Notes: generated from the letters alone by a model not told the origin. Numbered from the stretch's first letter, positions 3,755 through 64,000 are shown. The stretch is DNA of 64,000 nucleotides from Alphaproteobacteria bacterium (GCA_963422645.2 CAXXVO010000012.1:128001-192000), one strand, 5' to 3'. Translations and numbers: made by a program.

Positions 3755-4378
3755 GCGGCCCGCATCTCGTCAGCCGGCTACGCGGGACCGCTTCGGACCA
3801 CATCGGGGAAGTCCACCGCTCGTCTCCGCCGCGCCGACCCTGGCGGTCTCAGCCAACGCCGTGACCTCGGGGTTGGAGCGTCACCGCGCGTCCCTCGCCA
3901 GAATCTGTTTCACGGCAAACGCTTCAGGGGCATGGCCCCGGGATCGCGCAAGGCGCGTGGCGGCTTCTGGCTCCACTGCGACCGAAACCAGCCCGCCCTC
4001 GTCATCCTCACCGAGAGCGCCGTCGACGCCATCTCTGCACGAAGCCTGCGCGTCGAGGGGACGCGCGAGAACGGCGCCGTCGTCGCCTCAACCGCCGGCA
4101 TCGCCAGCTCGGTCCCGCCCTGGATCAAGGAGTGGAAGCCACGTCGCATCGTCTGTGCCTACGACGCAGACAGCGCCGGCGACACTGCCGCCGAGCATCT
4201 CGTGCTCAACGATCCAAGGGTGAAAAGGTTGCGCCCACGACACGCCAAGGACTGGAACGAGATGCTCCTGCGGTCTCGATGAAAGCCAGGCCACTCACCG
4301 CTCTCGCAGATCAACCAAGCGCCGCATCACGAACATCAAATAATCCGAAAACCGCACCATCAAATGCTGGGCGCACGC

Positions 4379-5755
4379 TCAGCGGAAGCCCCCGGAGATC
4401 TTCTGGCGCAGCTTCATCATCCGAAGGTCGCGCTCGGCCTCGTTGTTCGTGAACCCGACCTCGAGGTCGATCAGGAACCGGAGCACCGCGCATTTGTGGT
4501 CGCGCAGCCTCAAGGCCAGATTGTGACCGATCCTTCGCTTCCGGCGCTTCTTCCTCTTGCCAGGCGAGAACGGTGGTTGGCTCTCGTGAAAGGCCAGCGC
4601 ATCGGCGATGATCTCGTCGTATCGGCGCTCGATCAGCGCCACAAGCCTCGCCGGAACGGCGATATCCTTGTCCAGCGCGATGCGGGCGGCGCGATTGGCT
4701 CGGCGCAGGAGCTGCTGCATCCGCCGGGCCCAAGCCTCCCCTTCGATGTCCACCAGCGCCTGCAACTCCCGCAGGTGATGGGCGTTGCACAGGCCGTGCT
4801 CCACCCCTTCCATCGCGAAGTACGGCTTCCAGTGATCGTGCACGACGATGCCGGAGACACCCGAGAGCAGGGCGCCGCGCTTGCCGCTGACCCGGTACGC
4901 CGCCAGCAGCGGCGTGCAGATCACATGAAGCCACTGCGTCTGACCGCCGATCCGCAAGCCGGTCTCGTCCATGTGTTTCACCCGCGCCGTGCCCGCCGCC
5001 AGGTCCTGTATGTGCAAGGCCGCGTCCCGCAGCCGCTCGGCCGCCCTCTCGCTCATCGTCGCCAACGTCGCAGCCGTCACCGGCGCGCCGAAGAGCTCGG
5101 CCATCACCTGCGACAGCCGATCCTCCGGCAGGAAGTGAGCGTGCTGAAGGTAGACCGCCACCCCGGCAATGCGCGGGCCGTACTGCACCGGCGCCGACAC
5201 CCCGTCGGGGAACGCCGCCCGGGTCACCGTCCCGCAATGCCCGCAGCACTTGGCATGCGCCCGGTGCTCGGTCACCTCCAGGGGGCTCGGCTCGGGCAGA
5301 TCGAACACCTGGCGGGCGACGGGCGTTCCCGCCCTGGCCGCGTCCGAAAGCGGCGAACCGCATCCCTTGCAGGAAGCCGGGACGTGATCCTTCACCCGAT
5401 CCGGGTGATCGGCGCGGCGCAGCGTCTTGCCCTTGTGGCCGGGCTGGCCACCGGGCTTGCGGCCCGATTTGCCGCGCAGGCTTCGGGTTCGCCGCTTCGA
5501 ATTCGGCTTCCTCAGCCCATCGCTCGAAGGCGGCTTGCCGCTGTTGCCGCTGTTGAGGCCGAGACGGCGCTCCAACTCCTCGATGCGCTCGACGAGACGC
5601 GCGACTTGCTCTTCCAGCCGCGCGTTCTGCTGCCGAAGCCAGGCATTTTCCTCCCGAAGCCGGGCGTTCTCCTCCTCCAGGCGGGCGATCTTCTGCGCGG
5701 GCGTTTCGGGCGCTGCTCCCGTCGAAGGGCCGCGCGGCGACTCGGGATTGCTCAT
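4379..5755 (-). pseudogene. IS66 transposase TnpC, C-terminally truncated
   Basis: Coiled coil, NSGKPPSSD, GGQPGHKG, CxxC zinc motifs, HMDETG, CNAHHLREL, TNNEAERDLR. Confidence 0.9.
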
Positions 5756-10065: not shown

Positions 10066-13000
10066 GTGAACATAGCATCGGAATGGAAGGAGGCGGCGCG
10101 GCCTCCCCTGCCTGCGGACGAGGCGGTGCTCGCTCTCTGCTGGGAGCGCTGGCGCGAGAACGCGGCCTGGAGCGAGGACGAGGGCCTCATCGCCTTCGCC
10201 GAGGCGTGCGAAGGCGATGCCACCGCCAACGCGCTGCTTGGCGCGCTCTTCGGCAACAGCCGCTACCTCAGCCATTGCCTCACCGCCGACCAGGACTTCG
10301 CGCGCCTGTTGATCGAGCGGGGGCCGGGTGCCGCCTACGCCGCCGCCCGCGCCATGGCGGCGGACACCAGCGTCCTCGGCGACGAATCGCGGCAACAGGT
10401 GATGAAGCGCCTGCGCGTGGCGAAGCGCCGCGCGAGCCTCGCCATCGGCATGGCCGACATCGCCTCGGTCTGGCCGCTGGAGCGGGTGACCGGCGCGCTC
10501 TCGGATATCGCCTCGGTCACGCTCAGCGCCGTCTGCGCCCATCTGCTGCGCAACCTGCACGATCGCGGCAAGCTCGCGCTCCCCGAGCCGGAGGCGCCCG
10601 AGCGAGGTTCCGGCCTCATCATCCTCGGCATGGGCAAGCTCGGCGCAGGCGAGCTCAACTATTCGAGCGACGTCGACATCATCGTCCTCTTCGACGAGGA
10701 GATCGCGTCCGACCCGAGCGGCGACGGGCTGCAGCAGACCTTCGCCCGCCTCGCCCGCAACCTGGTCACGATCATGGACGAGCGGACCGCGGACGGTTAC
10801 GTCTTCCGCACCGACCTCCGCCTCCGCCCGGACCCCGGCTCCACCGCCGCGGCCCTCTCGGTCCGCGCCGCCGAGGCCTATTACGCGACCACCGGCGAGA
10901 ACTGGGAGCGGGCCGCCATGATCAAGGCGAAGCCCGTAGCCGGCGACATCAAAGCCGGCAACGGCTTCCTCGAGCGGCTCGAGCCCTTCATCTGGCGCCG
11001 GCACCTCGACTTCGCCGCAATCCAGAACATCCGCTCGATCAAGCGCCAGATCGATGCCCACCGCGGCACCGGCCAGGTCGCCGTGGTCGGCCACAACATC
11101 AAGCTCGGGCGCGGCGGCATCCGCGAGATCGAGTTCCTTGCGCAGACCCAGCAGCTCATCTGGGGCGGGCGCGATCCTGCGCTGCGCGTGCGTGGCACGC
11201 GGGAGGCCTTCGACGGGCTCGTTGCCGCCGGCCACGTGCGCCGCCGGGCGGTGGACGAGCTGATGGAGGCCTACACCTTCCACCGCACCGTCGAGCACCG
11301 GCTGCAGATGGCGGACGACCGCCAGACCCACAGCCTGCCGGACGACGAGGGCGGCGTGGCGCAGGTCGCCGTCTTCCTGGGCTATGACAATCTCGACGAC
11401 TTTACCGAGGCGCTGCTTGCCCGCCTGCGCACGGTGGAGCGCCACTACATGGCGCTCTTCGAGGAAGAGCCCGCGCTCACGACCGAGGGCACTCTCGACT
11501 TCAGCGGCGCCGGCGACGGCGATGCCACGCTGGAGACCCTCGCGGCCATGGGCTACGCGCATCCGGAGCGCGCCTTCGAGACGCTGCGGGCTTGGCACGA
11601 GGGCCGCTACCGCGCTGTGCGCGGCGAGGAAGCGCGCGAGCGACTGGCGGAGCTGCTGCCGACGGTCCTGGACGTCTTCGCCGCCTGGCCGGTCCCCGAT
11701 TCGGCGCTCGCCCTCTTCGACGGCTTTCTCGCGCGCCTGCCCGCCGGCTCCCACCTCTTCTCCATGTTCGCGGCCCACCCCGAACTCTTCGATCTGATCA
11801 CGGAGATCATGGGTTCTGCCCCTCGCCTCGCCAATTGGCTGGAGCACCGGCCCATGCTGCTCGACAGCGTATTGAGCCGCGAGTTCTCCGACCTAGACGT
11901 GCCGGACGCCGACGATTTGGGCCCCGAACTCGCGATCATCGCGCGGCGTGGCCTCGTTCGCGTGTTCTACCAGCGCGAGTTCGGCACGGAGGAAATTAGG
12001 TCCGAGCTCGCCGACGTGGCGCTCCGCGCGCGCGACGTGCAGGACTTCCTCGACTCCGAGCGGCGCTGGGCCAACGACAAGATCTTTCACATCGGCGTGC
12101 ACATGCTGCGGGGGCTGCTCTTCCCGGTCGAGGCTGCGATGCCGCTCTCCGACATCGCTGATGCCTGTCTCGGCGCCGCGCTCCCCGTCGTCGCCAATGC
12201 CTTCGCCGAGACGCACGGCCGGCTGCCCGGCGGCCGCTTCGCCGTGGTCGCTTTGGGCCGCCTCGGCAGCCGGGAGATGACGGTGACCGCCCCGCTCGAC
12301 CTCATTCTGGTCTACGATCATCCGCCGAACGCCGAGGAGTCCGACGGGCGCAAGGCGCTCCGGCCCGACCGCTACTACGGGCAGCTCAGCCGGCGCTACG
12401 TCGCTGCGATCCGTGCGGCAACGGCGGAGGGCACGCTCTACGACGTGGACATGCACCCACGCCCATCCGGCAACGCCGGGCCCATCGTCACCTCGCTCGA
12501 CTCCTTCATCGAGCATTTTTCTGCCGGCGTTCCGACCTGGCAGCACCAGGCGCTCGCCCGCGCGCGCGTGGTCTGGGCCGAGGGCGACCTGGGCGAGCGC
12601 TTCGAGGAGGCGCGCCGCACCACCCTCAGGCAAGCGCGTGAGGCGGAAGATCTCTCCGCCCAAATCGCGGGCTTACGCGAGGACTTGCGCGGCGGCGATC
12701 CCGGCGACGACATTTGGGATATCGAGCAGAAGCGCGGCGGCCTGATCGACGTCGAGTTCATCGCGCAATACCTCCAGCTGCTGCATGCGGCCGAGTCCGA
12801 GGCGGTGCTCGCCGGCGACCCGGTCTCGGTCTTCGAGGCTGCGGGCAAGCACGGGCTGATCGAGCCCGAGACCGTGCGCGAGCTCGCGGACGCGACGGTG
12901 CTGTGGCGCAACCTGCATGGCATCCTGAGCCTGACAGTGGAGGAGGAGCGCTTCGTCGAGGCGACCGCACCGCCGGCGCTGCTCGCGGTGATCGAGCGCG

Positions 13001-54330: not shown

Positions 54331-55648
54331 GGCTCCAGGAACGGAGCTGAGCGTTGCGGGGCAGAGGCTCGGCGGCAGCGAGGCGCCGGAGGAGGCTCGG
54401 GCGAGCGAGGCCGAGGCCGGTCTCGAAGCGCTTGCGGACTGGCTGCGCGGCGAAGACGACGAGGGCCGCACGGGCTTCGAATCGCGACCGGTGACAGGCC
54501 GCGACGTCCTGACCGGGTCTTCGTTCGCGCTCACGGAGGGCTCGACGGAGGCCGGCTTCGGTGCGGTGTGGGGCCGGGGCGCGATCTCGCGCTTCGACGG
54601 GCGTCAGGGCGACCTCACGCTCGACGGCGAAGTGCTGAGCAGCATGCTGGGCGCCGACTGGACGGGCGGGCCAGGGACCGCGGGGTTCATGGTCGCTCAT
54701 TCCCGCGGCGAGGGCAGCTACCACGCGGGGGCGGGCGGGGGCGAGGTCTCCTTGACCTTGACCGGGATCTACCCCTATGGCCGCTATGCGGTGGATGAAG
54801 GCCTGTCCCTATGGGGTGTGCTCGGCCACGGCGCCGGCAAGCTTACTCTCACGCCGGAGGGCAGCACGCCGCTCAAGGCCGATATCGATCTGACGATGGC
54901 GGCAGCAGGCACCAGGGACACGATTCTCGAAGGTGACGACGACGGAGCAACGCTGGCGTTGACGGCCGACGGGCTGGCGGCCTCGAAGGCCAATGTGACA
55001 CGCCTGCGTCTGGGCCTCGAGGGATCGCTGCCGTCAACGCTGGAGGGCGGGGCCCTGCTCACGCCGAGTGCCAAGATCGGGCTGCGCCATGACGGCGGCG
55101 ATGCTGAGACAGGCTTCGGAGCTGACATCGGCGCTGGGCTCTCCTGGACGGATGCGGCACGCGGCCTGAATGCCGAAATCCGTGGTCGTGGATTACTGAC
55201 CCATGAGGACGGGGGCTTCCGGGAGCGCGGCTTCGCCGCCTCGCTTGCCTGGAACCCGACACCGGGCTCCGCACTCGGCCCATCGATCGCCCTGCGCCAG
55301 ACGGCGGGCGCTTCAGCGAGTGGCGGCATGGATGCGCTGCTCTCGCGGGGGACGATGGCGGGCCTCGCCGCCAATGACAACGACAATGACGTGGATGTTG
55401 CACACCGTTTGGAGGTCAAGCTGAGCTATGGACTGCCCGCGTTCGGCAGCCGATTCATCGGCACACCCGAAATGGGGTTCGGGTTCTCGGATACGGGCCG
55501 CGACTACAGTCTGGGCTGGGGCCTCGGTCTTGCGCGGCAAGACCGGACATCCCTCGATCTCTCCCTTGAGGGGACGCGGCGCGAAAGCGCGAACGATGAC
55601 GGCAAGCCGGAGCACGGAATCGGCCTCAGGCTAAAAGCACGTTGGTAA
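54331..55648 (+). pseudogene. Autotransporter beta-barrel domain fragment
   Basis: VWGRGA, GIYPYGRY, RLRLGLEG, GLRHDGGDAETGFG, terminal LKARW; N-terminus missing. Confidence 0.75.
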
Positions 55649-56073
55649 GCGTGGGTTTGCCCTGAGGCGTGGTTGCCAATCCTGGGAGCGATTCAGCCCC
55701 GAGTACTGCGGCCCGCCATCGCTGAGCACTGGATGGTAACGGACCGGCGAACACGACGATCGTGATGGGCATTGAGTAATTGGCTGCGAGTGTTTTCGTC
55801 GCAACGATTGGCGGGTAGCCGAAGCGCCAAGCTGTTGTTCAGCACGGTGGAATGACGCCGATCGGCGCGATAACCTCAGACTTCCTGACCTCTGCTGATT
55901 TTAGGTGACACGAGCCGCGCGGATTCCGAGGCCCCGTCGATGTCGTAGACTATGCGCAGACGGGTGCCGGGGAATGAGCGTGCGCCCAGCATTTGATGGT
56001 GCGGTTTTCGGATTATTTGATGTTCGTGATGCGGCGCTTGGTTGATCTGCGAGAGCGGTGAGTGGCCTGGCTT

Positions 56074-56943
56074 TCATCGAGACCGCAGGAGCATCTCGTT
56101 CCAGTCCTTGGCGTGTCGTGGGCGCAACCTTTTCACCCTTGGATCGTTGAGCACGAGATGCTCGGCGGCAGTGTCGCCGGCGCTGTCTGCGTCGTAGGCA
56201 CAGACGATGCGACGTGGCTTCCACTCCTTGATCCAGGGCGGGACCGAGCTGGCGATGCCGGCGGTTGAGGCGACGACGGCGCCGTTCTCGCGCGTCCCCT
56301 CGACGCGCAGGCTTCGTGCAGAGATGGCGTCGACGGCGCTCTCGGTGAGGATGACGAGGGCGGGCTGGTTTCGGTCGCAGTGGAGCCAGAAGCCGCCACG
56401 CGCCTTGCGCGATCCCGGGGCCATGCCCCTGAAGCGTTTTGTTCCGGGCTGCGGCGCGGTGCCGAGGATCTCGGCGCCGGTCGTGTGCCCGCTGGCGTTT
56501 CGGCAGATGAAGACGGCGTTGATCCTGTCATCGGCGTAGAGGAGGCCTCGGCCGTGGCAGGCTTCGAGCACGTCGGTGCCGATAGCGCGTTGGCGGATGA
56601 GGGCGTCCCGGACCCTGGGCCAGGCGCGGGGACTGGGCCTTGGCAGCCGCAGGCGTCGCGGGGCGGCTGGGATGGTGGTGATCTCCCTCCGCCCCTCATG
56701 GCTTCCGAGGAAGCGGAGGGCTTCCGGGAAGCGGCATCCCGTCGCATGGATGACGAGGTCGATGGCGCCACCCCCTCCCGTGCCGCGCAGGTGATCGAAG
56801 AACTTCTCGCCGTTGATGCTGATGACCGAGCCCCCGCGCTTGAAGCGCGCCCGGTCGGTCGGGTCTCTGCGGTAGCCGAGGGCGGCGGCGACCCGGTCGA
56901 GGGGGATGTTGCGGCAGGTGGCCAGGGGATCGCCGCCGCTCAT
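56074..56943 (-). CDS. DUF3991 + TOPRIM domain primase-like protein
   Basis: GGGGAIDLV, TESAVDAIS, AYDADSAG (DxD), KDWNE. Confidence 0.82.
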   Translation of the reverse strand: MSGGDPLATCRNIPLDRVAAALGYRRDPTDRARFKRGGSVISINGEKFFDHLRGTGGGGAIDLVIHATGCRFPEALRFLGSHEGRREITTIPAAPRRLRLPRPSPRAWPRVRDALIRQRAIGTDVLEACHGRGLLYADDRINAVFICRNASGHTTGAEILGTAPQPGTKRFRGMAPGSRKARGGFWLHCDRNQPALVILTESAVDAISARSLRVEGTRENGAVVASTAGIASSVPPWIKEWKPRRIVCAYDADSAGDTAAEHLVLNDPRVKRLRPRHAKDWNEMLLRSR

Positions 56944-56984
56944 TGCCGGGTCCCGGCGAAGGTCTGCTTGGAAGGGAGGCTGAC

Positions 56985-57045
56985 GGCGTTCCCGTTCCTG
57001 TACCCTTCAACGCTTAAGAGTTCCGGGAACGGGAACGGGAACGCC
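56985..57045. repeat. Origin-like inverted repeat with GGGAAC iterons
   Basis: GGCGTTCCCGTTCC (56985-56998) / GGAACGGGAACGCC (57032-57045); GGGAAC x3 at 57025-57042. Confidence 0.7.
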
Positions 57046-58044
57046 TCATCCCGCACTTCCGTTGATGGCGGCAGGGGATTGCGGCTCCCGGTGCGCCTCG
57101 GCGGCTGCGAGGCGATAGCCACCCCTGGGCGCCCGTTCGATGCGCCCCTCCCTGGTGAGGCTCTCGATGGCGGCAACGACGGTGGCGTTGCGGGCAGCGG
57201 CGCGTGAGCGGATCTGGGCTTTCGAGAGCGGCTTTTCGGCCTGCTCGATCGCCTTGAAGACGCGCTGCTCGACGGTGGCGGGCTCGTGCCTGTCTTCATC
57301 TGCCGCGTCCTGGTGCAGACGGAAGGCCGGCCCATGTCCGCCGTCGACGAGTTCCAGCTCGATGTCGTTGAGGCCCCGGGCGTCGCGCTGCTCGACCGTC
57401 ATGACGATCTTCTTGTCGCGCCGGCGCAGGTACAGATTTGAGTCACCCCAAGCGTGCAGCTCGCTGCTCCCGCGCAGGGCCTGCCCCGGCCGGGTGCCGC
57501 CGCTCTTGCGGGCGTGGTGGACGAGGAGGACGGCGGTTTCGAAGCGGCGCTGCAGTTCGCGCAGGAAGCCGAGGATGGGGGCGATCTCTGCGACGGCGTT
57601 CTCGTCGACGCTGTGCAGGCGGACCAGGGGATCGAGGATCAGGAGGCGCGGTTCGATGCGCTCCACGGTCTCCTGCAGGCGCTGACGGTCGATGCGCTGG
57701 TCGAGACGCAGGGTGGGCACGTCGATGACGGCGATGTCGAGTTCGTCGAAGGGGGTGGCGGCGGCGCGGGCGATCCCCTGCAGACGCTTGCGCACCCTGT
57801 GGCCGGCGTCCTCGGCGGCGAAGAGCAGCACGGTGCCGCTTGCGCTGGGGCGGTAGTGGCGCAGGCATGGGACGCCGGTGGCCACGGCGACGGCGAGATC
57901 GAGCGCGAGCAGGGATTTGCCGCACTTGGGCTCGCCGCCGACGATGCCCACGGCCTGCTCGGCCCACAGCGTGTCCACCATCCACTGTTGCGCCCGGGGG
58001 CGATCCTCGAGCTGCATCGGCGCCCGTGTCGGGAAGCCCTTCAC
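57046..58044 (-). CDS. RecA-fold AAA_25/RepA-type helicase-like ATPase with C-terminal HTH
   Basis: GEPKCGKS Walker A, AAED, LLILDP Walker B, LVHHARK, RGSS; GTGA overlap with the upstream ATPase stop. Confidence 0.82.
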   Translation of the reverse strand: MKGFPTRAPMQLEDRPRAQQWMVDTLWAEQAVGIVGGEPKCGKSLLALDLAVAVATGVPCLRHYRPSASGTVLLFAAEDAGHRVRKRLQGIARAAATPFDELDIAVIDVPTLRLDQRIDRQRLQETVERIEPRLLILDPLVRLHSVDENAVAEIAPILGFLRELQRRFETAVLLVHHARKSGGTRPGQALRGSSELHAWGDSNLYLRRRDKKIVMTVEQRDARGLNDIELELVDGGHGPAFRLHQDAADEDRHEPATVEQRVFKAIEQAEKPLSKAQIRSRAAARNATVVAAIESLTREGRIERAPRGGYRLAAAEAHREPQSPAAINGSAG

Positions 58045-58874
58045 CGCCGTGCCCTCTTCGGCTTGGCGGGCTCGCCCAGGATCTCCATGAAGAGCTTCTC
58101 GTCGAGAACCTCGCGGTTCTTCTCGGCGCCGGCGGCGAGCAGCATGTCGCCCATGACGGTAAGCGCCCTGGGGTTGCCGCCGGCGTGGGTGACCAGGGTG
58201 TCCTTGAGCTCTGCGCTCATGAGGCCCGGATTGCCGGCCTGCTCGACCAGATGGTCGAGCAGGGCCGCGAGGTCGCCGGCGTCTGCCTGGGTCATGACCA
58301 GGCGCTGGCGCAGGCGCGAGGCGATGGGCTGCAAGTCGGGCTGGCGGAGCCTGTCGATCAGGCGGCTGTCGCCGGCGAAGACGACCGAGAGGATGGCGCG
58401 CGAGTCGAAGTCGGTGGACGCCAGCAGGCGGATCTCGGAGATCACCGAGGGCAGCAGCTCCTGGGCCTCGTCGATGAGCACCACGGGCCGCATGCGGGTG
58501 TCGTCGACATGGGTGAGCCATCGCTCGCGCAGGTTTTTGAAGCTGGCCCAGCGGTTGTTGTACATCAGGTCGACGCCGAACATCCCGCCGATCTCGCGGT
58601 AGAAGTCGGACAGCCTGGAAGAGGGGTGGGTGATGGCACAGACCCTGAGCCCGTCCGAGCGGCCGAGGCGGTCGGCGAGCACGCGCAACGCCACGCTCTT
58701 TCCGGTGCCGGGCTCGCCGGCGATCAACGCGAAGCCGCCCTGGCGCACAAGATGATGCTCGATTCTGAGGCAGAAGCTGTCGACGGCGGGGCTCACCATG
58801 AGGCTGTCGACCGGAAGGTCGGTGGCGAAGGGGTTCCATTTGAGCCCGTAGAAGGTGAGCAGCTCGCGGTTCAT
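58041..58874 (-). CDS. ExeA/TniB-like AAA+ ATPase (transposition accessory)
   Basis: FYGLKWNPF, GEPGTGKS, VLIDEAQ, GNPR; ATGA-coupled to the transposase. Confidence 0.85.
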   Translation of the reverse strand: MNRELLTFYGLKWNPFATDLPVDSLMVSPAVDSFCLRIEHHLVRQGGFALIAGEPGTGKSVALRVLADRLGRSDGLRVCAITHPSSRLSDFYREIGGMFGVDLMYNNRWASFKNLRERWLTHVDDTRMRPVVLIDEAQELLPSVISEIRLLASTDFDSRAILSVVFAGDSRLIDRLRQPDLQPIASRLRQRLVMTQADAGDLAALLDHLVEQAGNPGLMSAELKDTLVTHAGGNPRALTVMGDMLLAAGAEKNREVLDEKLFMEILGEPAKPKRARR

Positions 58875-60346
58875 GACGGATCTCCCTGATCGTCGTCCTC
58901 GCCCGGACCGGGCGTCTTGTTATGGGGTACCCAGGCCGGCGGCAGGCCTGTTGCGGCCTGGGCGTCGAGCACGCCCTTGAGCAGCGGCGGAAGTTCGCCG
59001 ACGCCCGCGCTGGCGCCGCCATGGTCGCTGCCGGGTCTCGCAGGACGGCGGACGCCATCGGCGTTGCCGCGCTTGTCGAGGGGGTACAGCGTGCACAGCC
59101 GCTCGCCGCTTCGGCCTTCCACCAGATCGACGCCGCTGAGGTCCCAGCGCGCATAGCGGACCCAGAGCGTCCTCAGGTGGCGCCACGGCTGTGGCACCTG
59201 GTAGCGGATGCCCTCGACCGAGACGGTGCCGTCCGAGCGCCTGAGCGTGCGCTTCCTGGCGATGCGGAAGGCCGCCTTGAGCTCGTCCGAGGCGGGGCAG
59301 GGCCTCGATGCCTTGACGCTCCCGGCGAGGCGTTCATGCGGCGTCATGCCGAGCTCGCGGTGCACCCGCCGATGGTAGTCCTGCTCCAGCCAGGCTATGG
59401 TGGCGTCGTTGAGCATCTTCAGGGTGAGCGCGTCGACGCCTTCGAGCTGAGCCATCAGGCGGCCCTCGACCGTGCCCCAGAACGACTCGATTTTTCCATT
59501 TTGATGGGGGCTGTAAGCGAGTGTCGTGGCCCCCACGATGCCGAGGCGGTGCAAGCCCTCCTCGACCTCGCCCGCCGTCATCGGCCCGCCGTTGTCGGTC
59601 AGCAGGGACCTGGGCAAGTCCCTCTTCATGAAGGCCTGACAGAGCCCGTGGACGAAGACCTCGGCGGTCTCCTCCAGGTACCACTGCAGGTGGCAGCCAA
59701 GCCTGGAGTGGTCGTCGAGGAAGCCGAGCAGGATGGGCGTCTGCCATTCGCCCGACGCCGTCAGCACGCGGCGCTTGCCGTGGTGGAAGTCCCCGTGCCA
59801 CAGCGCGTGACTGCGAGACACCTCGTAGCTAAGGACCTCGCGGGCTTCGACCGCCGGCTTGTCCTCACCCTCGTGCCACTTCCTGGGGCGCTCGCGCACC
59901 AGGCCGCGATTGCGCATCGCCCGCGTCAGCGTCGCGTAGGACGGCATCGGGCCGAGCTCGGGATGGGTCGCAACATGAGCCTTGAGGGTCTCGTAGTGGA
60001 GCTGCGCCGCCCACGAGGGATGGACCCGGTACTGCTCGCGCAGCGCCGCGATCAGCCCCGCCGACATGGACCGCTCGCGGCCGACGTCGGTCCGAGGCTT
60101 CCGGCGCAGCGCCTTGACCGGGTCCTGCTCCTCTGCCCGCGCCCGGTAGTACCAGCGCTCGATCGTCGAGGCCGCAAAGCGCACCGGCCCCTTGCCCGAC
60201 GGGTGCTCCCAGTCGCGCTGCGACAGACGCTCGAACTCGGCCCCCAGCTGGCCTGCAGGCGGCGGTGAAGCCAGAAGCGGCCCCACCACCGCAAAGCGCA
60301 GCCGGGCCCACTTCTCGCGCCTGGCGCCCGCGTCGTCCTTGTCCAT
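58871..60346 (-). CDS. DDE (rve/Mu-like) transposase; start approximate
   Basis: N-terminal HTH, WHGDF (D), LTDNG (D), GKIESF (E), C-terminal DGTVSVEG beta domain. Confidence 0.88.
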   Translation of the reverse strand: MDKDDAGARREKWARLRFAVVGPLLASPPPAGQLGAEFERLSQRDWEHPSGKGPVRFAASTIERWYYRARAEEQDPVKALRRKPRTDVGRERSMSAGLIAALREQYRVHPSWAAQLHYETLKAHVATHPELGPMPSYATLTRAMRNRGLVRERPRKWHEGEDKPAVEAREVLSYEVSRSHALWHGDFHHGKRRVLTASGEWQTPILLGFLDDHSRLGCHLQWYLEETAEVFVHGLCQAFMKRDLPRSLLTDNGGPMTAGEVEEGLHRLGIVGATTLAYSPHQNGKIESFWGTVEGRLMAQLEGVDALTLKMLNDATIAWLEQDYHRRVHRELGMTPHERLAGSVKASRPCPASDELKAAFRIARKRTLRRSDGTVSVEGIRYQVPQPWRHLRTLWVRYARWDLSGVDLVEGRSGERLCTLYPLDKRGNADGVRRPARPGSDHGGASAGVGELPPLLKGVLDAQAATGLPPAWVPHNKTPGPGEDDDQGDPS

Positions 60347-60395
60347 TCCGGCATCCCTCCCTCGCCGCATCGGAGAGATGCCCATGTAGAACGCC

Positions 60396-61013
60396 CTATC
60401 CGGGCGTGACAGGAACACTTTCTGCGGGCGGCGCCGAGCCATCGCCGAGCCCGCAATAGCCCGTCCACGGCTTGAACCAGATCAGGCTCAGGAACAGACG
60501 CTCACCGAAGCGTCCGCCCCGCATCTGCCGCAGCACGAAGAGCAGCGGCACCTCCTCGGGTGGCATCACCAGTTCGCCACGCTTCGCTCCCCAGGGCTCC
60601 GTCGCCGGGAACGCCTCCAGCCACCACTTCCGCCAGCGGCGCAGTGTGGCGACCGAGACCCCCCACTTCCGCTTGATCGTCTGCAACCGCACCCCGCCTC
60701 TCAGAACCAGTGCACTCAACAGAACGAACAGGGCGCCCAGATAAAAGCGGCGCCCGAAGAATCGTACCGATGGTGGGGTCGCTCGCAGGCGGCAATCCGC
60801 GCAGCAGAAGCTGAACCGCCGCGTGCCCTCTTCCCTCAACTCGGCTGCCAGACCGTACGGCTTGCGCGGATACGTCGCGCTGTGCAGCTTGCCGGGGCAG
60901 TGTCGGCAGCCCGCCTCGCGGCAGCGCGCCGCCTCGGCCTCATCGACCTCGCGCAGCCAGGCCCAGACCAGGGCGTTGCAAAGCATGGAGTGGCGGAAAA
61001 TGTTGTGCGACAT
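60396..61013 (-). CDS. Zn-finger + HTH protein upstream of the transposase
   Basis: CRHC and CCADC pairs, SVRFFGRR, TLRRWRKWW. Confidence 0.7.
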   Translation of the reverse strand: MSHNIFRHSMLCNALVWAWLREVDEAEAARCREAGCRHCPGKLHSATYPRKPYGLAAELREEGTRRFSFCCADCRLRATPPSVRFFGRRFYLGALFVLLSALVLRGGVRLQTIKRKWGVSVATLRRWRKWWLEAFPATEPWGAKRGELVMPPEEVPLLFVLRQMRGGRFGERLFLSLIWFKPWTGYCGLGDGSAPPAESVPVTPG

Positions 61014-61413
61014 TGGGGCCGTCTCTGGCGATTGTGACCGTCACCACGAGACAAAGCCCCCCGGCGAACTTCTTGCAAGTTCGCCGAGGGGCACCCGCCC
61101 CAAAACCTCAACAAATCCGAGCGGATCAGGCCCCGATCCCCGCTGAAAGACCGCGCGCGCTCAGGGAAGACCGTTTCGGTGGCGTTCAGGTCGCTCAGAA
61201 CCGCATCGATCCAACGGTCGCAGGCGTCGTTTGCGAGGCCAAGAATGTGGACCCGCAGGAGGCCATTGCCAGGATCCGGCAGGATGTCGGCATCGGCGGT
61301 GAGCAGCGCTTGAAGCAGTTTCCGGGGATGGGGCTTGTGGCCCTGCGCCTGCATGACGGGAAGCATCATGCGGGTTTCGGCGCGGTAGGCGATCATCCGG
61401 ATGACGTCGAGGA

Positions 61414-61692: not shown

Positions 61693-62421
61693 TCAGGAGC
61701 GGTTCTTGAAGCGCCAGCTCTCGTTGCCGGTCTCGATGATCTCGCAATGATGGGTGAGGCGATCGAGCAGCGCTGTGGTCATCTTGGGGTCGCCGAAGAC
61801 GGATGGCCATTCGCCGAAGGCGAGGTTTGTGGTGATGACGATCGAGGTGCGCTCGTAGAGCCGGCTCATCAGATGGAAGAGCAGCTGCCCACCGGCCTGG
61901 GCGAAGGGCAGGTAGCCGAGCTCGTCGAGGATGACGAAGTCGCGGCGGACGAGCTGGTCTGCAGTGCGGCCCTGGCGTCCGGCGCGAAGCTCGGCCTCGA
62001 GGAGGTTGACCAGGTCGACGACGTTGTAGCACCGGCCGCGCGCGCCCTTGCGGATGCAGGACCGCGCGATGGCGACGGCGAGATGGGTCTTGCCGGTACC
62101 GGTGCCGCCGACCAGCACGATGTTGCGTTTGCCCTCGAGGAAGCCGCCGCCGGCGAGCTCCTGGATCAGGGGCTCGTTGACCGGCGAGGCGGCGAAGTCG
62201 AAGTCGGCCAGCTCCTTGACCGTCGGCAGCTTGGCGGAGGCCATCTGGTACTTGATCGAGCGGGCCCTCTTGTCGGCGATCTCGACCTGCAGCAGCGTAC
62301 CGATGATCTGTTGCACCGGATGGCGGCGCTTGAGCCCGTCGGCAAGGATGTCGTCGTAAGCGGCGCGCATACCTGCGAGCTTCAGCTGGGTCATCATCTC
62401 CAGCACATCATGACGCTCCAT
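61693..62421 (-). CDS. istB: IS21 helper ATPase
   Basis: [24 protein letters not shown]. Confidence 0.95.
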
Positions 62422-63922
62422 GACCGGCCTCCCTCAGGCTGTCGTAGCGCTGACAGTCGGCTACCGGCTTGTGGCGAAGCTGCAGGCCCTCGGGCGTCGG
62501 GATGATTGCCGGCGGTGCCGGCTGGCGCTGCCGGGCGAGGATGTTGAGCACCACGTCGGCGCTGCAGGCACCGCAGTCGAGCGTCTCGGCACAGGCCGCC
62601 TCAACCGCCTCCAGTCCGTCCTCCAGCACCGCCGCGAGCACCTTGACGAACTGCCGGTCGCCGTCGTCGTGGCCCGCGAGCCGGGTTCGCAGGCGGCCGA
62701 GCGCGTTGGGCAACTGCCAGTCCTTGAAGGGCGCGCCATTGCGTAGCGCGCCGGGCTTCCGCGTCAGGATCGGCACGTAATGCCACGGATCGTAGACGAA
62801 CCGGCCGCGCCCGAAGCTGCGGGGGTGCTCGGCAACGGTCTCGCCGTCCTGGCGGATGACGATCCGATCGGCATAGGCCCGCACGTCCACCGGCCGGCCG
62901 ACGGCGCGGGCCGCGACGCTGTACTGGTTGTTGTCGAAGCGCACCAGACAGGTCTTCGAGACCGACACCTCGCTGGCATGGAAGCCGTCGAAGGGGCCGC
63001 GATACGCCATCAGGAAGGGCTGCTCCTCCTCGAACACCTGCCACACCGTCTTGCCCGGGATTGTCGGATGCGGATGCTTCTTGGCGTCCTCGATGCACCG
63101 ATCCATCAGCCACTCGTTGATCTCGGCGTAGGAGCGGCCCCGCGGGATGGGCACGAACAGGCGGCCGCGAAGGTCACCCACCTGCTTCTCGACCTGCCCC
63201 TTCTCCCAGCCAGCCCCTGGCGTGCACGCCACAGGCTCCACCAGATGGTGCGAGCACAGCTCCTGGAAGCGGCGGTTGTAGTCCCGCTTCTTGCCCACGA
63301 AGATCGTGCTCACCGCCGTCTTCATGTTGTCGTAGATGCCCCGCCGGCAGACCCCGCCGAAGAAGCGGAAGGCACGCTCGTGCGCCTCGAAGACCATCTC
63401 CTGGCTCTCGCGGGGAAAGATCTGGACCAGATACATCCGGCTGTGGCACAGCCGCATGTGCGCCGCCTTCACCCTGGTCGTCGCGCCCGACAGACGCGCG
63501 TACTCGTGGCTCCAGTCGAACTGGTAGGCCTCGCCGGGATCGAAGATCAGCGGCACATAGGCCTGCGCCGGCGACAACAGCCGCCACCGGCGCCGCCAGG
63601 CCCTGGCATAGCGGCGAACCGCGTCATAGCCGCCCTTGTAGCCCAGCGACACAAGGTCTTCATGAATCCGCAGAAGAGACAGCCGATCCTTGCGTGCCTT
63701 CTTCTCGTTGGCCTTCAGCTGGCGCTCAAGCTCCTCCACCCACAGCCCAAGCTTCGGCATCGGCTGGATCTTGCGCTCGTAGCTGTGCGAGGTCGCATCG
63801 CCCCGCACCACCTTGCGTATCGTGTTCTTGGAAACCCTCAAATCCCGGGCGAGCTTCTTGATCGGAACGCCCTTCACCAGATGATCCCGACGGATCTTCG
63901 CGATCGTTTCCACAACCAGCAT
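62408..63922 (-). CDS. istA: IS21 transposase
   Basis: N-terminal HTH, YQFDW, YDNMKT, EKGQVE, LRNGAPF. Confidence 0.95.
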
Positions 63923-64000
63923 CTCCCCCACCACCCCGTCCGTCCAAACGACGAGGTGTGTTCATGGACACAAATCCAAGGGGGTCAATTTTGGACGCCG

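Follow-up and report, generated by a model that had tools for sequence, protein, structure and literature searches.

Can a bacterial transposon of about 5 kb bring its own replication proteins to the DNA-synthesis step of transposition? The question is raised by an element at positions 55975–61163 of a 64,000-nucleotide (nt) stretch of DNA from an Alphaproteobacteria bacterium (GCA_963422645.2, CAXXVO010000012.1:128001-192000), here called the window and numbered from its first letter. Within its ends the element carries, beside a DDE transposase gene and unusually among bacterial transposons, genes for a RepA-like ATPase (AAA_25) and for a DUF3991-Toprim protein that is a candidate primase. 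It is a compact, autonomous and currently active transposon of the type that pairs a DDE transposase with an AAA+ ATPase, and its core can be placed in the Tn6049 family. We put at about even the chance that the AAA_25 gene, the palindrome behind it and the Toprim gene form a built-in replication module serving the DNA-synthesis step of transposition.

Boundaries, mobility and family of the element

Both ends of the element could be placed to the base. The termini (TGAGCG...CGCTCA) are flanked by a GGGAA duplication; on the plus strand, GGGAA stands directly before TGAGCGTGCGCC at the 55975 junction (GCCGGGGAA followed by TGAGCGTGCGCC) and directly after GCGCGCGCTCA at the 61163 junction (GCGCGCGCTCA followed by GGGAAGACC). 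Translated on the minus strand, the flanks read ...LNATETVFP and FPGTRLRIVY, and retention of one GGGAA joins them in frame as TETVFPGTRLRIVY. The empty site itself is present in contigs of three public runs, where 55969 is joined to 61164 with 5194 nt skipped and 5 letters ambiguous. The in-frame join and the empty site bear out the exact boundaries, the duplication and the restoration of the host insertion sequence (IS) on excision that were proposed in the initial annotation. The features of the element are as follows (aa, amino acids).

55970–55974: target-site duplication GGGAA, copy 1 (from flank reading and the empty-site joint)
55975–61163, genes on the minus strand: whole element, 5189 bp, five-gene form assigned to the Tn6049 family
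55975–56035: primase-side end; terminal TGAGCGTGCGCC, then two subterminal ATTTGATG(G/T) repeats at 55991–55999 and 56015–56023
56074–56943, minus strand: DUF3991-Toprim protein, 289 aa, zinc-less DnaG-like primase candidate (Pfam DUF3991, Toprim_2)
56985–57045, minus strand: palindrome with three tandem hexamers per arm, (GTTCCC)x3, about 21 nt, (GGGAAC)x3, directly after the AAA_25 stop
57046–58044, minus strand: AAA_25 (RepA-like, RecA-fold) ATPase with predicted C-terminal winged helix, 332 aa (Pfam AAA_25, 125.3 bits)
58041–58874, minus strand: AAA_22 (ExeA/GspA/TniB-like) AAA+ ATPase, 277 aa (Pfam AAA_22, 69 bits)
58871–60346, minus strand: DDE (rve) transposase, about 491 aa from M33 of a 523-aa open reading frame (rve, rve_3, HTH_32)
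60396–61013, minus strand: Cys-rich (CxxC...CCxxC) and helix-turn-helix (HTH) protein, 205 aa, DUF6431-like (invariant residues, weak HTH_23)
61056–61092, minus strand: 16-bp stem-loop with T-rich tail in the 5' leader, terminator-like (consensus scan only)
61104–61163: transposase-side end; terminal TGAGCGCGCGCG (read inward), then subterminal repeats TTTCAGCGG and ATTTGTTGAGG
61164–61168: target-site duplication GGGAA, copy 2 (from flank reading and the empty-site joint)

As first described, the five genes are co-oriented, and since coding sequence and short end regions occupy the whole element there is no other cargo. The transposase stop overlaps the AAA_22 start codon (ATGA), and the AAA_22 stop overlaps the GTG start of the AAA_25 gene at 58044 (GTGA), confirming the overlaps reported among these three genes. 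The transposase open reading frame (ORF) extends up to 60442, and about 120 homologs measure around 491 aa, which makes M33 the likely start; from M33 there is no overlap of the transposase gene with the Cys-rich gene. The rve, rve_3 and HTH_32 matches of the transposase all fall under the Pfam cut-offs. In the Cys-rich protein C36, C39, C70, C71, C74 and an R126-W127-W131 helix are invariant across 34 sequences; its nearest Atlas clusters bear DUF6431 (a lead only), a PDB profile search returned nothing significant, and an identity with TniQ found no support in Pfam. The element encodes neither a TnsA-like 5' nuclease nor a resolvase. A terminus followed by two TTGATGG-like repeats, at about +17 and +42, recurs in relatives and in Tn6049, and the subterminal repeats are presumed to be transposase-binding sites. 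The stem-loop in the 5' leader possibly blocks read-in transcription; consensus scanning found 3 terminator-like sites where shuffled sequences gave 2.5. Apart from chance matches to microRNA models, Rfam gave nothing at E≤1 for the element or for one four-gene relative.

Eight full-length copies without interruption occur in the source genome (5.9 Mb in 23 contigs, 67% G+C), along with about 35 additional pieces; several of these are halves of copies cut apart by other insertion sequences, and all copies and pieces but one are more than 99% identical. Every one of the 27 left and 24 right ends terminates at the same base. The transposase frame is uninterrupted over its full length at 14 places, and among the 8 full copies examined the AAA_25 gene is intact in all 8 and the Toprim gene in 7. 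The 5-bp duplication that was first described holds for the copy in the window and not as a general rule: among 13 two-ended copies in this genome it measures 5 bp in 3 and 4 bp in 2, with nothing matching in 8, and in other genomes 17 of 22 copies have a duplication of 4 or 5 bp. Because of those 17 copies, the absent duplications here more likely reflect exchange among many copies than insertion chemistry; intramolecular replicative events would leave the same duplication-less trace. A comparison of flanks among copies, made to detect replicative inversions, yielded cross matches and own matches in equal number, 3 of each, with about 1.25 expected by chance; these are too few to separate recombination from replicative events.

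Further observations concern the history of copies. A dead fragment of the element lies elsewhere in the window, at 1934–2152 and 3917–4381 (element positions 462–680 and 1–465), its parts separated by a 1765-bp insertion with a 4-bp duplication, and the same 462–680/1–465 split is found on two other contigs. In a four-gene lineage (G008), the left flank GAAGG of one copy equals the right flank of another on a different contig (L033/L034), an exchange attributable to recombination or to a replicative event. Synonymous divergence (dS) is strongly unequal between genes in the element pairs G000–G008A, G000–L050 and G000–L043 (for G000 and G008A, 0.16 in the AAA_25 gene vs 0.47 in the AAA_22 gene), and element lineages therefore appear to swap modules by recombination.

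A protein search of 72,556 plasmids gave best transposase matches of about 50% identity in plasmids of Paraburkholderia, Pseudomonas and Cupriavidus, with Cupriavidus accounting for 19 of the 37 matching records. Tn6049 is described as a 3.5-kb transposon present in 12 copies in Cupriavidus metallidurans CH34, all with the ATPase gene gspA (PMC2864759); on the Pseudomonas aeruginosa plasmid pHS87a it is reported with 12-bp imperfect repeats and 4-bp direct repeats (PMC4739549). Identity to Tn6049 is 48–50% for the transposase, 50% for the AAA_22 ATPase (against 'gspA') and 41% for the first ORF, and the gene order and the 4-nt stop/start overlap are the same. The element also shares the TG...CA imperfect terminal repeats, the TTGATGG-like subterminal repeats and a short duplication, of 4–5 bp in the element, while the flanks of the pMOL30 copy of Tn6049 share a 6-bp match. 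Because the first three proteins, their order and the end layout match, we place the core in this family, and the initial view that the five-gene layout belonged to no recognised family has to be given up. With its 5189 bp, two additional genes and palindrome, the element departs from the 3.5-kb, three-gene layout and is a variant form. No mechanistic study of Tn6049 was found in the literature searched.

Assignments to other families were rejected. IS481 (NF033577) was the best NCBIfam match, at 117.3 bits under a cut-off of 224, and a five-gene element stands against a single-gene IS. For IS21 there was no IstB_IS21 (PF01695) match, and the IS21 transposase model scored 37 bits against a cut-off of 160. 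None of the Pfam families of MuA/TnsB/TniA, TniB, TniQ and TnsA was matched at E≤0.01, so only the general logic of a DDE transposase with an AAA+ ATPase is shared with Mu, Tn7 and Tn5053, and membership of a Mu/Tn7/IS21 clan, as originally suggested, does not hold in the strict sense.

Relatives were collected from one genome per species, which gave 80 loci (those of one genome are not independent) spanning Alphaproteobacteria, Acidobacteriota, Gemmatimonadota, Myxococcota, Planctomycetota, Verrucomicrobiota and others. The transposase and AAA_22 genes are adjacent in all 80, and the Cys-rich ORF lies upstream wherever the contig extends that far. Lineages from the same genus comprise five-gene forms of 5185–5189 bp and four-gene forms without Toprim of 4421–4432 bp, all holding AAA_25 within identical TGAGCG ends; overall, four-gene elements with AAA_25 inside the ends measure 4370–4432 bp. 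True three-gene elements of 3267 bp also exist, in several copies.

The helicase-like gene, its palindrome and the primase-like gene

The claim that helicase-like and primase-like genes lie inside the ends was upheld, and both genes are conserved. The AAA_25 domain scored 125.3 bits against a Pfam cut-off of 27, and the whole ATPase core aligned with the RSF1010 RepA helicase (1g8y) at E=8.6e-9 as a single sequence and 5e-17 as a profile. The last 60 residues match a Zalpha winged helix (E=0.004). Segments that we take to be Walker A, Walker B and further ATPase motifs (GKS, AAED, LDP..RLH, HH.RK, RGSS) are invariant in 22 diverse elements. These profile matches, on which the fold-level claims for the element's proteins rest, suggest a RepA-like ATPase of the hexameric-helicase type that would act as a helicase.

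Among the related loci AAA_25 is present in 54 of 80, of which 4 also have Toprim, 29 have room for it and lack it, and 21 are on contigs too short. Ten of the 80 have room yet no AAA_25 (3 of them with a damaged AAA_22 gene), and 16 are too short to tell. The AAA_25 tree reproduces the deepest split of the transposase tree with full support in the Shimodaira–Hasegawa-like approximate likelihood ratio test (SH-aLRT 100). Pairwise identities correlate with those of the transposase at r=0.89 for AAA_25 and r=0.93 for AAA_22, with the same mean identity (0.59–0.60), and the ratio of nonsynonymous to synonymous divergence (dN/dS) is 0.29–0.44 for AAA_25 vs 0.25–0.33 for the transposase. The presence and absence of AAA_25 require at least five changes on the transposase tree, whose root was not placed (rooting with IS481-like outgroups failed, their branches being about 10 changes per column long). 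On these comparisons we regard the AAA_25 gene as long established and integral in a large branch of the family, and as under purifying selection. The initial annotation treated the five genes as a unit. That picture stands for AAA_25, which most relatives carry inside the ends and which co-diverges with the transposase; the refuting condition named there, that homologous elements mostly lack the gene or hold it outside the ends, does not apply to it. The picture fails for Toprim, which is optional (4 of the 33 loci with room).

No match to the AAA_25 protein was found at 1e-8 in the 72,556 plasmids. Distant relatives (30–38% identity) are fused to Prim-Pol or RepB-primase domains, and in a viral contig the nearest AAA_25 relative directly follows a primase with Zn_ribbon_DnaG and Toprim_2 domains. 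AAA_22 and AAA_25 are joined as a single polypeptide of about 590–600 aa in 10 of 20 longer matches, among them P0245 and P0241. At least in P0245 the two are cleanly fused end to end, while others may be gene-calling artefacts across the 4-nt overlap.

The palindrome follows the AAA_25 gene in most elements that have the gene. Of 39 unique elements with AAA_25, 34 show its hexamer pattern in their 260-nt tail (18 of them in both arms). The pattern is in none of 27 tails of elements without detected AAA_25, although some of those contigs end there or have coding sequence as the tail; in all element bodies combined it gave 3 matches. The spacing of the arms is constant (37–38 nt), and the hexamer differs among lineages (GGGAAC, GGGAAG, GGAAAC, GGTAAC) with both arms varying together. 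In the alignment 88% of cells pair, and 31 cells are doubly changed vs 10.5 in shuffles, with 0 of 500 shuffles as high; the pattern was composed after inspection of the same sequences, and the structure was also derived from them, which favours this pairing result. The predicted folding energy is −24 kcal/mol (z=−4.7). The palindrome is a candidate loading or origin-like site to which the AAA_25 protein may bind, and it is speculation that six hexamer repeats serve six winged-helix tails. A hairpin in RNA or in single-stranded DNA fits the counts equally well.

The Toprim protein matched DUF3991 (41.6 bits) and Toprim_2 (37.4 bits), both over the Pfam cut-offs, and E201, D251xD253, D257 and a KDWN motif are invariant in 26 sequences. 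Residues 41–264 are colinear with residues 48–319 of the host DnaG in an hhalign comparison, from the zinc-ribbon region through the Toprim fold, and dN/dS is 0.32–0.33. We consider the protein a candidate zinc-less, DnaG-like primase. A class-wide search at 1e-10 returned 0 of 400 other genomes.

Metagenomes scanned with the Toprim alignment, by pattern-based sampling and with the best 80 of 317 matches evaluated, placed the gene in a wider context. Wherever upstream context was visible, homologs of at least 45% identity lay in DDE transposons with an AAA+ ATPase: 20 loci were in IS21-like elements with the order ParB/KorB-like gene, IstA, IstB, Toprim, 8 stood behind an IS481-like rve transposase and AAA_22 without AAA_25, and 5 were Tn6049-like with AAA_25. 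The remaining 47 of the 80 include homologs of at least 45% identity on contigs too short for upstream context. The gene lies inside the ends in the IS481-like (about 4.3 kb) and IS21-like (about 4.8 kb, with inverted repeats of about 88 bp) units too. In the Toprim tree all 36 rows with transposon context (11 Tn6049-like, 5 IS481-like with AAA_22, 20 IS21-like) fall in one 41-row clade with an SH-aLRT of 99; the opposite side holds 32 rows of 31–40% identity, of which the two inspected are larger proteins of 2440 and 586 aa. In plasmids, the DUF3991-Toprim domain pair (30–38% identity) is located under MobV-relaxase genes.

In the IS21-like elements (L158 200–5000, L185 81–4889, L194 1667–6486) the Toprim gene is stand-alone and overlaps the end of istB; no description of IS21 relatives with ParB/KorB-like and DUF3991-Toprim genes was found. 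The third kind of transposon (L141 423–4743, L145 1698–6182) consists of a small ORF, rve transposase, AAA_22 and Toprim without AAA_25, and its transposase is IS481-like at 206.9 bits, just under the cut-off. In several four-gene elements (L043 at about 10340–10520; L038, L040, L033, L051, L063) about 150 nt of non-coding sequence between the palindrome and the right end are conserved and have no Rfam match; this block occupies the position that the Toprim gene takes in the five-gene form.

A possible replication module and its alternatives

How might these parts act together? Since no TnsA-like 5' nuclease is encoded, the transposase would nick and join 3' ends alone, so that movement would require DNA synthesis through the element, either by copying out a figure-eight or circle, the route of IS3-type elements, or by fork assembly on the strand-transfer intermediate (as in Mu). 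The AAA_25 helicase, translationally coupled to AAA_22, would load at the palindrome and unwind the element, the Toprim primase, where present, would start the complementary strand, and a host polymerase would carry out the synthesis. An element so equipped would have less need of the host's restart primosome, and its spread across many phyla would agree with that. The conserved palindrome linked to the helicase-like gene, and the same primase clade in three transposon kinds, strengthen the case for such a mechanism. IEE, as described in a preprint (10.1101/2023.06.07.543989), is a primase-helicase protein acting on IS families with circular intermediates, and related IS families are there thought to use copy-out-paste-in via circles.

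Several results weigh against a replication module. Three-gene relatives multiply without either extra gene, as the 12 copies of Tn6049 and the 3267-bp elements demonstrate, and the module would therefore be at most an enhancer, not needed for the basic chemistry. The Toprim gene is rare in the Tn6049-like family and sits at three places on the transposase tree, which requires at least three gains or losses. Its likeness to primases is weak by score (DnaG alignment at E=0.0013 and 18.7% probability in hhalign; PDB profile matches at E=0.04–0.4, although all 6 are primases, T7 gp4 and DnaG); the stretch aligned to the CHC2 zinc ribbon lacks Cys/His ligands, and the protein stops right after the Toprim fold, without a C-terminal DnaB-binding domain. 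None of the five proteins has a polymerase domain in Pfam or NCBIfam. The palindrome could be an RNA hairpin or terminator carried along with the AAA_25 gene, and the single-polypeptide form of AAA_22 and AAA_25 could point to a function within the target complex instead of replication. Circle junctions were seen neither in the contigs of the three runs nor in seven short contigs scanned for end motifs. Of 32 short contigs, not one had the terminal overlap of a circular assembly, and word depth over the element is flat (71.6 in run X1). Neither of the two options offered in the initial annotation, replication from a strand-transfer intermediate and an excised circle, is shown by these results.

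The arrangement of a putative initiator-helicase gene with an adjoining iteron-like palindrome is also replicon-like, and the element could be an episomal mini-replicon, excised as a double-stranded circle in the manner of IS3-, IS21- and IS30-type elements and copied, or maintained for some time, like a small plasmid by the AAA_25 initiator-helicase at the palindrome origin and the Toprim primase, with a raised chance of reinsertion. The ParB/KorB-like gene of the IS21-like primase-bearing elements and the many metagenome contigs of about one element's length would agree with this, and IS21 and other families are said to form circles in the same preprint (10.1101/2023.06.07.543989). However, the element-length contigs end exactly at the element ends or enter the flanks, the flat depth leaves no measurable excess of copies, and no back-joined joint was seen in the three runs, a weak argument as contigs cannot show rare forms. 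We judge the episome unlikely. Non-replicative roles appear just as improbable: AAA_25 could partner AAA_22 in target choice, immunity or complex remodelling, and Toprim could act as a nuclease that trims or cuts 5' strands, shifting the outcome from cointegrate to simple insertion. The translational coupling of the two ATPase genes and their clean fusion in P0245 would suit such roles, as would the occurrence of the primase-like gene without the helicase-like gene in two other transposon kinds and the simple insertions with 4–5 bp duplications that make up 17 of the 22 copies in other genomes; Toprim domains occur in nucleases too. Yet the AAA_25 core matches a replicative helicase and has distant relatives fused to primases, the Toprim protein aligns with DnaG across the whole primase core, beyond the Toprim fold, and the plasmid versions of its domain pair sit in relaxase-linked proteins, a setting where primases are known.

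It is least probable, and in our estimation very unlikely, that the genes are mere passengers that came from the replication module of a phage or plasmid and contribute nothing to the life cycle of the element. The pairing of a Toprim primase with an AAA_25 helicase in a viral contig could point to such an origin, as could the patchy distribution of the primase-like gene in the Tn6049-like family and the module shuffling indicated by unequal dS within an element pair. Against it, AAA_25 co-diverges with the transposase across the deepest split, at the same mean identity and with similar dN/dS, it has no match at 1e-8 in the plasmid collection, and the element-borne primases form a separate clade. 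A useless gene would be expected to decay in a multi-copy element, yet both genes are intact in nearly all full copies of the source genome.

Genomic setting, related systems and significance

The element has inserted into another mobile element. The interrupted host IS (window 55876–55974 and 61164 to about 61434) measures about 2.5 kb and has one ORF of 785 aa, to which NCBIfam gives weak HTH matches alone; at least 96 uninterrupted copies of it occur in the genome, far above the number of the element itself. An IS21-type copy at window 61693–63934 (minus strand; IstA 508 aa, IstB 242 aa) lies beside or inside the same host IS, forming an insertion nest. Just beyond the host IS, at window 54491–55648, is a 385-aa glycine-rich ORF whose C-terminus resembles, by eye, an outer-membrane beta domain.

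Among known systems Tn6049 is closest, with homologous first three genes in the same order, the stop/start overlap, TG...CA ends, a 12-bp imperfect repeat, short duplications and multiple copies; it has a small hypothetical ORF instead of the AAA_25 gene, palindrome and Toprim gene. The element resembles Mu, Tn7 and Tn5053 in pairing a DDE transposase with an AAA+ ATPase and in having TG...CA ends, multiple subterminal sites and a target duplication of about 5 bp. For the strand-transfer intermediate of Mu, fork assembly by the host is required, whereas here, besides the missing TnsA and resolvase, candidate replication factors are encoded by the element and not borrowed. The AAA_25 protein shares a RepA-type ATPase core with RSF1010, and the logic of RSF1010 and of phage P4 alpha is a helicase with a DNA-binding tail acting by repeated sites together with a dedicated primase. 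In contrast to RSF1010 the element has no RepC-like initiator, its candidate primase is of another fold family than RepB', and the putative module sits in a DDE transposon. Casposons and Polintons are mobile elements equipped with replication proteins to copy themselves; these self-synthesizing transposons encode a DNA polymerase and Cas1 or a retroviral-type integrase, while the present element has no polymerase and is much smaller. By its transposase it is nearest to the IS481 and IS3 models. A primase-helicase protein, IEE, acts on IS3/IS481-type elements in the copy-out step, though according to the preprint it combines a PrimPol with a UvsW-like helicase, is encoded outside the IS and promotes excision (10.1101/2023.06.07.543989). 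The DnaG-like Toprim protein and RepA-like ATPase lack homology to IEE, and their genes lie within the element.

The core family is thus already known. In the literature searched (supplements and the original 2009 description of Tn6049 lay outside the search) no description was found of its forms with helicase-like or primase-like genes, of the palindrome or of the primase clade particular to transposons, and nothing was found on DDE transposons that carry AAA_25 or DUF3991-Toprim genes. We tentatively propose, as a possibility with the odds still against it, that an overlooked class of DDE transposons (Tn6049-, IS481- and IS21-like) has repeatedly acquired a transposon primase, and one lineage also an initiator-helicase with an origin-like palindrome, and that these element-encoded factors replicate a circle or forked-joint intermediate. 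If so, such elements would stand between transposons and the replicons of plasmids or viruses as genuine intermediate forms, and would make tractable a question of long standing, namely how replication starts on transposition intermediates. To our knowledge, the recruitment of replication to such intermediates is understood in detail only for Mu, and work on the Tn3 family is reportedly recent. Helicase-like and primase-like proteins together with a likely loading site, three small parts in a 5-kb element, make this recruitment directly testable. The same primase clade in three unrelated kinds of transposon with a DDE transposase and an AAA+ ATPase suggests that priming may generally be a bottleneck in this type of transposition. 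Environmental genomes from many phyla are rich in these elements, which can reach dozens of copies per genome and are therefore relevant to genome plasticity and to annotation, where the two proteins currently carry the labels 'AAA family ATPase' and 'toprim domain-containing protein'.

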